From sequence record PQ249395: a stretch of 64,000 nucleotides of DNA, one strand, 5' to 3'. The DNA comes from Escherichia phage Pu-Krd-SF1. Below the pieces are notes generated by a model that saw only the letters and a program-made list of their open reading frames with translations, was not told where the DNA came from and made no database searches. Of the stretch, positions 8,475 through 9,254 are shown piece after piece; positions within the stretch are counted from its first letter, which is position 1, and the number at the start of each line of letters is the position of its first letter. The position numbers were made by a program, and so were the translations under genes.

Positions 8475-9254
8475 ATGAATTATACTAAAGTATATAATAA
8501 TTTAATTAAGAAAGGAAAACTCAGAAAATTAGATAAATCTAAATTAAATTTTTATACGGAAAAGCATCATATTATTCCATCTTGTATTGGTGGTAATGAT
8601 GATTCTGATAATCTAGTTTTATTAACAGCTAGAGAGCATTTTATAGCCCATTGGCTTTTAGCTAAAATTCATTATAATTCGCCTGGATTAATTTATGCAT
8701 AGTGGTCATTTTATAATTTTGGAGAAGATTCTTTAGGAAGAAATCTCAAATTAACTTCAAGAGGATATCAGTTAGTTAGAGAAAAATTTTCAAAAATACA
8801 TTCTAATACAATGAAAGAAATGTGGAAGTCTAATGAATACAGAGAAAAACGTTCGATAACATTAAGTCTTCCTGAAATAAGGGCTAAAATTTCAGAATCC
8901 CAGTTAGAAGCACAAAACAAACCGGAAGTTAAAGAAAAAATATCTAAAGGGGTGAAAGCTGCTTTTAAACGACCGGGAGTTAAAGAAAAACACTCTGCTG
9001 CAGTCAAAAAATCTTTGAATAATTTTGAAACTAAAAAGAAACAATCAAATTCATCTAAAATTAGACAAAGAACTGGTAAACATTGGCAAGACTATGACTT
9101 ACTTTATAAGTTATGGATTAAATTAAATAGACCTAAACGTGGGTCATTCGGAACTTATATAAGTAAATTAGGATATCCAAAATCTAATTATCATCGATTG
9201 ATTGTACAATTTAATGAAGATTATGAAAGGTCTAATAATGAAAACTGTAGTTAA
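8475..9254 (+). pseudogene. mobD-like HNH homing endonuclease interrupted by one in-frame TAG (8700-8702)
   Basis: ORFs 8475-8702 and 8811-9254 share one frame with a single TAG and no other stop; N-part has HNH motif EKHHIIPSCIGGNDDSDNLVLLTAREH; C-part resembles C-termini of HNH genes at 30026 and 48190. Confidence 0.6.

Follow-up and report, generated by a model that had tools for sequence, protein, structure and literature searches.

Results

The mobD locus

Translation of positions 8475–9254 on the plus strand of the window, the 64,000-nucleotide stretch of Escherichia phage Pu-Krd-SF1 (PQ249395) analysed here, gave a single frame of 260 codons that ends in TAA and contains one internal stop, a TAG at 8700–8702. 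The ORF list of the window places 8475–8702 (75 aa) and 8811–9254 (147 aa) in this same frame, confirming the preliminary description of two ORFs parted by the TAG; all ORFs and genes of this locus named below lie on the plus strand. The annotation of phage T4T (HM137666, T4Tp099; also NC_000866) assigns the same 780 nucleotides to mobD, 'homing endonuclease; H-N-H family', a CDS at 1676–2455 of the fetched locus L002 that is flanked by mobD.1 and nrdC.11. The two sequences are of equal length and share 778 of 780 nucleotides with no indel. Because the same 780-nucleotide frame is the intact, annotated mobD of T4, only two nucleotides apart, the split frame is not a product of chance. The neighbour order mobD.1, mobD, nrdC.11 is alike in the annotated Pu-Krd-SF5 and T4T loci, and the insertion site of mobD between mobD.1 and nrdC.11 is given in Table 1 of a published review (PMC2988022). 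The feature is orthologous to mobD of T4, a free-standing gene for an HNH homing endonuclease, and occupies the canonical mobD.1/nrdC.11 position; sequence, position and HNH motif all agree, and only an uninterrupted frame of 259 codons is lacking. The protein is identical to that of T4 except at codon 76; there, TGG in T4 is TAG in the window, and no more than residues 1–75 of the 259 can be synthesized.

The amber codon at 8700–8702 replaces TGG (Trp-76) through a G-to-A transition at 8701. On its 5' side, 8475–8702 is the translated remnant, a 75-aa N-terminal fragment with an HNH (beta-beta-alpha-metal) motif. On its 3' side, 8703–9254 holds codons 77–259 and the terminal stop, which specify the same amino acids as T4 MobD 77–259 and would now go untranslated. 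The 147-aa ORF inside this part (8811–9254), called a hypothetical protein, corresponds to codons 113–259 of intact MobD. The Pu-Krd-SF5 record, whose mobD region is identical to the window, accordingly carries two CDSs, a 'homing endonuclease' and a 'hypothetical protein'. By annotation, the next gene is nrdC.11 (nucleotidyltransferase, 9238–10248), the first 17 nt of which are shared with the 3' end of mobD. It is followed by a strong intrinsic terminator at 10250–10269 with an 8-bp stem (6 GC pairs), a UUCG loop and a T7 tail. With this terminator directly 3' of its stop codon, nrdC.11 should be the only gene open to a polar effect of the amber codon in mobD.

Immediately upstream of mobD is a leader ORF of 23 codons (8408–8478; MFISSGTDMCYKCKAKLNETKNQ, then the stop) with a strong Shine-Dalgarno sequence, GAGGAAAT (gaggaaatATG). 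Its TGA overlaps the mobD ATG (aaccaATGAat), and mobD itself has no Shine-Dalgarno sequence. Given this overlap and the missing ribosome-binding sequence, translation of mobD may be coupled to that of the leader. Promoter-like sites around and inside mobD numbered 17, compared with 14.7 ± 3.3 in shuffled sequences; as they are no commoner than in the shuffles, we do not claim an internal promoter for nrdC.11.

The phage is T4-like and, judged by its relatives, belongs to the genus Tequatrovirus. In megablast, window positions 1–25000 were 100% identical over 25 kb to Escherichia phage Pu-Krd-SF6 (PQ759886.1), which according to the record metadata came from piglet faeces in Russia and was isolated on E. 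coli B.

The HNH motif and the C-terminal region

The HNH motif of the 75-aa fragment (EKHHIIPSCIGGNDDSDNLVLLTAREHFIAH) occupies residues 29–59. A PHROG search matched the fragment to phrog_655, 'homing endonuclease', with E=2e-37; the Pfam HNH model scored 21.0 bits over residues 27–50, marginally below its 21.4 cut-off; and residues 25–59 aligned to the HNH domain of the group II intron maturase 6me0 with HH..N..H aligned. A PDB sequence search gave weak matches only, all within the HNH motif. These searches bear out the earlier assignment of the motif to the N-terminal part. The accompanying claim, that the C-terminal part resembles the C-terminal ends of two intact HNH paralogs encoded elsewhere in the window, also held: identity was 41% over 98 aa with the product of 30026–30880 (284 aa; E=3e-15) and 37% over 60 aa with that of 48175–49026 (283 aa; E=5e-7). 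Both paralogs share with MobD the phrog_655 match, an N-terminal HNH motif and the C-terminal motif HW..LY.LWI..N.PK...F......GYP, but they are only 25–30% identical to it, lie at other loci and are intact genes.

The C-terminal part alone matched no Pfam or PHROG family, it gave no helix-turn-helix assignment in Pfam, and neither it nor full-length MobD gave a Pfam NUMOD3 match at E<=0.1. The translation contains three repeats of ~17 aa (PEIRAKISESQ, PEVKEKISKGV and PGVKEKHSAAV) that bear a resemblance to the NUMOD3 motif. Mob proteins have been described as consisting of an HNH domain and a presumed C-terminal DNA-binding region (PMC2988022). On the strength of that statement and of the similarity to the paralogs, the C-terminal part of MobD is presumed to be the DNA-binding region.

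Like mobD, the two paralogs are sporadically distributed. The 30026–30880 gene, an intact free-standing HNH gene directly 5' of a gene 46 homolog (30896–32578), was found in 69 phage records, T6 included, with no T4 record among the matches listed. The 48175–49026 gene overlaps the end of a dCTPase gene 56 homolog (47589–48200) and occurs in 29 records, among them phages of Yersinia, Citrobacter and Klebsiella. We take its site to correspond to the position of segF on the T4 map, and on that basis the two would be different homing endonuclease genes at one site.

The amber codon is derived and confined to a small clade

The two differences from T4 mobD are a T instead of C at 8675, synonymous in Tyr-67, and the A instead of G at 8701 that turns TGG (Trp-76) into TAG. 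Apart from codon 76, the amino acids of the frame are those of T4 MobD, and the window mobD carries no further disabling change. To compare codon 76 across relatives, 65-nt probes in TAG and TGG versions were counted as exact matches over 45 mobD-bearing phage records. The TAG 65-mer matched five records only, Pu-Krd-SF3, SF4, SF5, SF6 and SF7, while the TGG 65-mer matched the other 40, T4 included. An alignment of the window with 18 fetched mobD copies, 14 of them outside the Pu-Krd series, agreed: position 8701 is G in 14/14 sampled genomes outside the series and A in the window, SF3, SF4 and SF5. Exact-pattern scans of IMG/VR and JGI metagenome contigs with the codon wild-carded (GGATTAATTTATGCANNNTGGTCATTTTATAATTTTGG) returned no match, so the allele frequencies come solely from the 45 isolate records. 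With TGG in all sampled genomes outside the Pu-Krd series and in 40/45 records, the amber codon is the derived state, and it occurs only in a small clade made up of five related isolates.

The TAG-bearing clade consists of distinct genomes and is not one clone. Over 25 kb, SF5 and SF7 are 99.1% and SF3 and SF4 99.0% identical to the window. In the 1.7-kb stretch around the allele the window and SF5 are the same, and SF3 and SF4 are also identical to it apart from indels.

The preliminary description had read the stop as a recent nonsense mutation and not as the mark of an old pseudogene in decay, and had named comparison of codon 8700–8702 with its orthologs as the way to check this. That comparison, with TGG in T4 and 39 other records and TAG in Pu-Krd-SF3 to SF7 only, favours the recent mutation, as does the identity of all remaining amino acids to T4 MobD; because the rest of the gene is unchanged in amino acids, the lesion is very young. 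The orthologs do not show the pattern that had been set against this reading, a natural stop with an independent downstream gene.

No route to a full-length product was found

No tRNA gene was found within the window, and a CUA anticodon is absent from the eight tRNAs, all with sense anticodons, in the tRNA clusters of SF6 and SF5; a phage-encoded suppressor tRNA was rejected on these grounds. The SF6 cluster (2955–4343 of locus L007; 98954–100342 of PQ759886.1) and that of L006 encode tRNAs for Leu, Gly, Pro, Ser, Thr, Met(CAT), Tyr(GTA) and Arg, with a homing endonuclease gene between tRNA-Tyr and tRNA-Arg and an HNH gene adjoining tRNA-Leu. The T4 set presumably includes Gln and lacks Tyr, differing from that of this phage. 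Reassignment of TAG was likewise rejected, since TAG is an ordinary terminator that ends 9/55 long ORFs in the window. RNA folding of 8690–8800 was no better than that of shuffled sequence (z=0.01), which removed a downstream recoding structure from consideration. Nor is the stop conserved as programmed readthrough would require, the codon being sense TGG in 40/45 records.

Restart of translation would also yield an incomplete protein. The first in-frame ATG, GTG or TTG 3' of the TAG is the ATG at 8811. No purine-rich Shine-Dalgarno sequence is present in the 21 nt 5' of it (tcaaaaatacattctaataca), and a product started at this ATG would be without codons 77–112. The 147-aa ORF 8811–9254 is probably an artefact of the split and not a separate gene.

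Cassette mobility and constraint on intact MobD

The 1.1 kb around mobD matched 503 phage records, only 45 of which hold its middle part. Homology to the mobD-less phage T2 ends at 8425 and resumes at 9234, which delimits a mobD-specific cassette at 8426–9233 that is not in mobD-less relatives such as T2; in its place T2 has 957 bp with three small ORFs. The first six codons of the 8408–8478 leader are the start of the T2 ORF T2_101, placing the left junction of the cassette (8425/8426) inside that ORF. When the window was aligned with loci L002 and L008–L021, the cassette (about 8400–9290) showed 0–2 differences per genome among mobD carriers. Among the same carriers, most left-flank bins (8000–8299) had 3–21 differences per 100 nt, and values of 1–10 per 100 nt prevailed in the right flank from 9300 onwards. 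The gene thus has the distribution of an optional, mobile element, being patchily present in a cassette far less diverged than its flanks. Near-invariance on diverged mosaic backbones is what a homing cassette usually shows when it has spread recently.

We sampled 13 genomes with intact mobD, comprising T4T, RB3, isolates from Germany, Denmark, Ireland, South Korea, China and Pakistan, and several of unrecorded origin. All 13 encode the same MobD protein (100% identity). The genes differ by six SNPs, all synonymous transitions, an outcome with P about 0.0015 if changes were neutral. The invariant protein and the exclusively synonymous SNPs suggest that intact mobD is under purifying selection. 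Such constraint would make the amber codon a true loss-of-function event and not drift in an already dead gene.

Small hypothetical mobD.x genes in RefSeq relatives (NC_054916, NC_054939, NC_025419; mobD.4 of T2) are labelled 'molybdopterin-guanine dinucleotide biosynthesis protein MobD', which looks like an annotation error through name collision with bacterial mobD/mob genes.

Further lesions in sister phages and in WL-3

Additional changes were seen in some carriers. SF3 and SF4 (L003 and L005) have an extra A in the A6 run at 9000–9005, and SF4 lacks a T at 8549 in the T5 run 8545–8549; both sites are homopolymers where an assembly error is possible. SF3 and SF4 also share a 24-bp in-frame deletion in nrdC.11, at 9375–9398. 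Phage vB_EcoM_WL-3 (L011, MT968995.1) has TGG at codon 76 and an inserted TC at ~9143 that truncates MobD to 230 aa; this may be an independent, unrelated inactivating lesion or else an assembly error. If real, the indels of SF3, SF4 and WL-3 fit relaxed selection and recurrent inactivation. They lie in or beside short repeats and could instead be assembly errors.

Alternative explanations of the amber codon

A sequencing or assembly error in a phage that really has TGG and an intact mobD would account for the finding most simply, and it draws some support from the origin of the data: all TAG records belong to one submitter series, Pu-Krd-SF3 to SF7, from one laboratory and sample type, and two of them (SF3 and SF4) also have homopolymer indels in mobD that hint at error-prone sequence. 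However, the base is common to five separately assembled genomes that are non-identical, ~1% apart over 25 kb, and the site, gcaTAGtgg, is outside any homopolymer run. A substitution is moreover an atypical error for platforms that produce homopolymer indels. An error at 8701, named at the outset as the circumstance that would undo the split-gene reading, therefore appears quite unlikely; formally, the five carriers could still have an artefact in common or have acquired the change while being passaged in the laboratory. The codon could also descend from a laboratory amber mutant of T4 made by classical mutagenesis, or from contamination with one, as TGG to TAG through a G:C to A:T transition is the classic mutagen-induced amber change. 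Yet the backbone is not that of T4: the flank left of mobD departs from T4 at 8–21 sites per 100 nt, and the 15 best matches over 25 kb do not include T4. The records give piglet faeces as the source of the isolates, and mobD is non-essential, so that a mutation in it would not surface in a conditional-lethal screen. The backbone divergence effectively refutes this origin and leaves it next to no probability.

Two further explanations would keep the gene at work. The preliminary description had offered an amber allele as the alternative wording to a nonsense mutation; the TAG is indeed there, but a suppressible, still-functional allele found no support, the phage having no suppressor tRNA and the host being E. 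coli B. Full-length MobD made through a suppressor tRNA or programmed readthrough would fit the fully open and unchanged frame 3' of the TAG, and T4-type phages can evolve tRNA suppressors (psu mutants). Against it stand the tRNA complement (no tRNA in the window, eight sense anticodons and no CUA in the SF6 and SF5 clusters), the unconserved stop (TGG in 40/45 orthologs), the everyday use of TAG as a terminator in this genome (9/55 long ORFs), the lack of a stimulatory RNA structure 3' of the stop, and a propagation host, E. coli B in the record metadata, that is a classical non-suppressing strain. The youth of the mutation accounts for the open downstream frame equally well, and we regard functional readthrough as very improbable. 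To the same degree improbable is a split endonuclease, in which the HNH fragment and a C-terminal fragment from ATG 8811 act together, or an HNH-only peptide with a selected new role. Both halves are intact ORFs, and carriage of the allele by five non-identical phages fits its being tolerated or favoured. The restart site nevertheless has no Shine-Dalgarno sequence, the restart product would miss codons 77–112, the C-terminal part alone belongs to no Pfam or PHROG family, and, if the indels are real, that part is frameshifted in SF3 and SF4 and the N-terminal part in SF4 as well, which speaks against either half being under selection.

Discussion

The feature is very probably a natural null allele, Trp76amber (G to A at 8701), of the T4-type free-standing HNH gene mobD, and to judge from its sequence this homing endonuclease gene is best classed as a pseudogene of very recent origin. 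Translation would end at codon 76 and yield a 75-aa peptide that keeps the HNH catalytic motif but is without the 183-residue C-terminal part presumed for DNA recognition. Site-specific cleavage would thereby be lost and, with cleavage, homing, on the understanding that the function of intact MobD is itself deduced. In the published survey of these genes, MobD activity is entered as 'ND' and its target as 'unknown', and mobD is described as a promoter-less cassette (PMC2988022). T4 remains viable after deletion of the fragment nrdC.11–mobD.3 (PMC9825161). We found no account of MobD activity or of the TAG allele in the literature searched.

We infer from these observations that mobD is a dispensable selfish element, and its loss would on that account be expected to carry no cost to the phage. 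As homing endonuclease genes usually do, the inserted cassette probably still shields the site that it occupies from cleavage; for this reason, nothing would select against the lesion once all local relatives carry the cassette. The amber codon would then be the first step of degeneration within a cycle of invasion, fixation, degeneration and loss, to be followed by the additional frameshifts of SF3 and SF4. The 75-aa HNH-only peptide might keep some non-specific nicking or other role. There is a small chance that the amber allele is favoured and not neutral, with the local phage population benefiting from MobD being switched off or from the stub alone. The gain could come, for example, from an end to self-inflicted nicking or from no longer triggering a host defence system, and such an advantage would explain why five non-identical phages share the allele inside an identical 1.7-kb stretch.

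Taken as a null allele, the finding is genuine but unremarkable, an early stage in the decay of a mobile gene that the phage can do without, and has little import beyond annotation. In the Pu-Krd-SF3 to SF7 records, a single mobD pseudogene should take the place of the present pair of CDSs, the 75-aa 'homing endonuclease' and the 147-aa 'hypothetical protein'. The allele also offers a snapshot of the very first decay step of a homing endonuclease gene, seen against a protein that is otherwise invariant (13/13). The TGG and TAG versions form a natural allele pair on different phage backbones, usable for asking whether MobD homes at all.

Defunct homing endonuclease genes have precedents among T-even phages. 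The I-TevIII gene is defunct in T4 and active in RB3 (PMC2988022, citing Wilson & Edgell 2009, PMC2790892), and mobD resembles it in being lost in some phages and intact in close relatives. The mobD lesion differs in being a single point nonsense change, the youngest possible kind, with the rest of the gene unchanged; in addition, I-TevIII is intron-encoded whereas mobD is free-standing. The broader pattern recalls the homing endonuclease life cycle of invasion, fixation, degeneration and loss that Goddard and Burt reportedly set up in 1999 for a yeast mitochondrial intron endonuclease. Shared with that cycle are the sporadic presence (45/503), the low-divergence cassette, the apparent purifying selection on intact copies, and the seemingly independent inactivating lesions in the Pu-Krd clade and WL-3; the difference is that the stage reached by mobD is read here from sequence comparison only.
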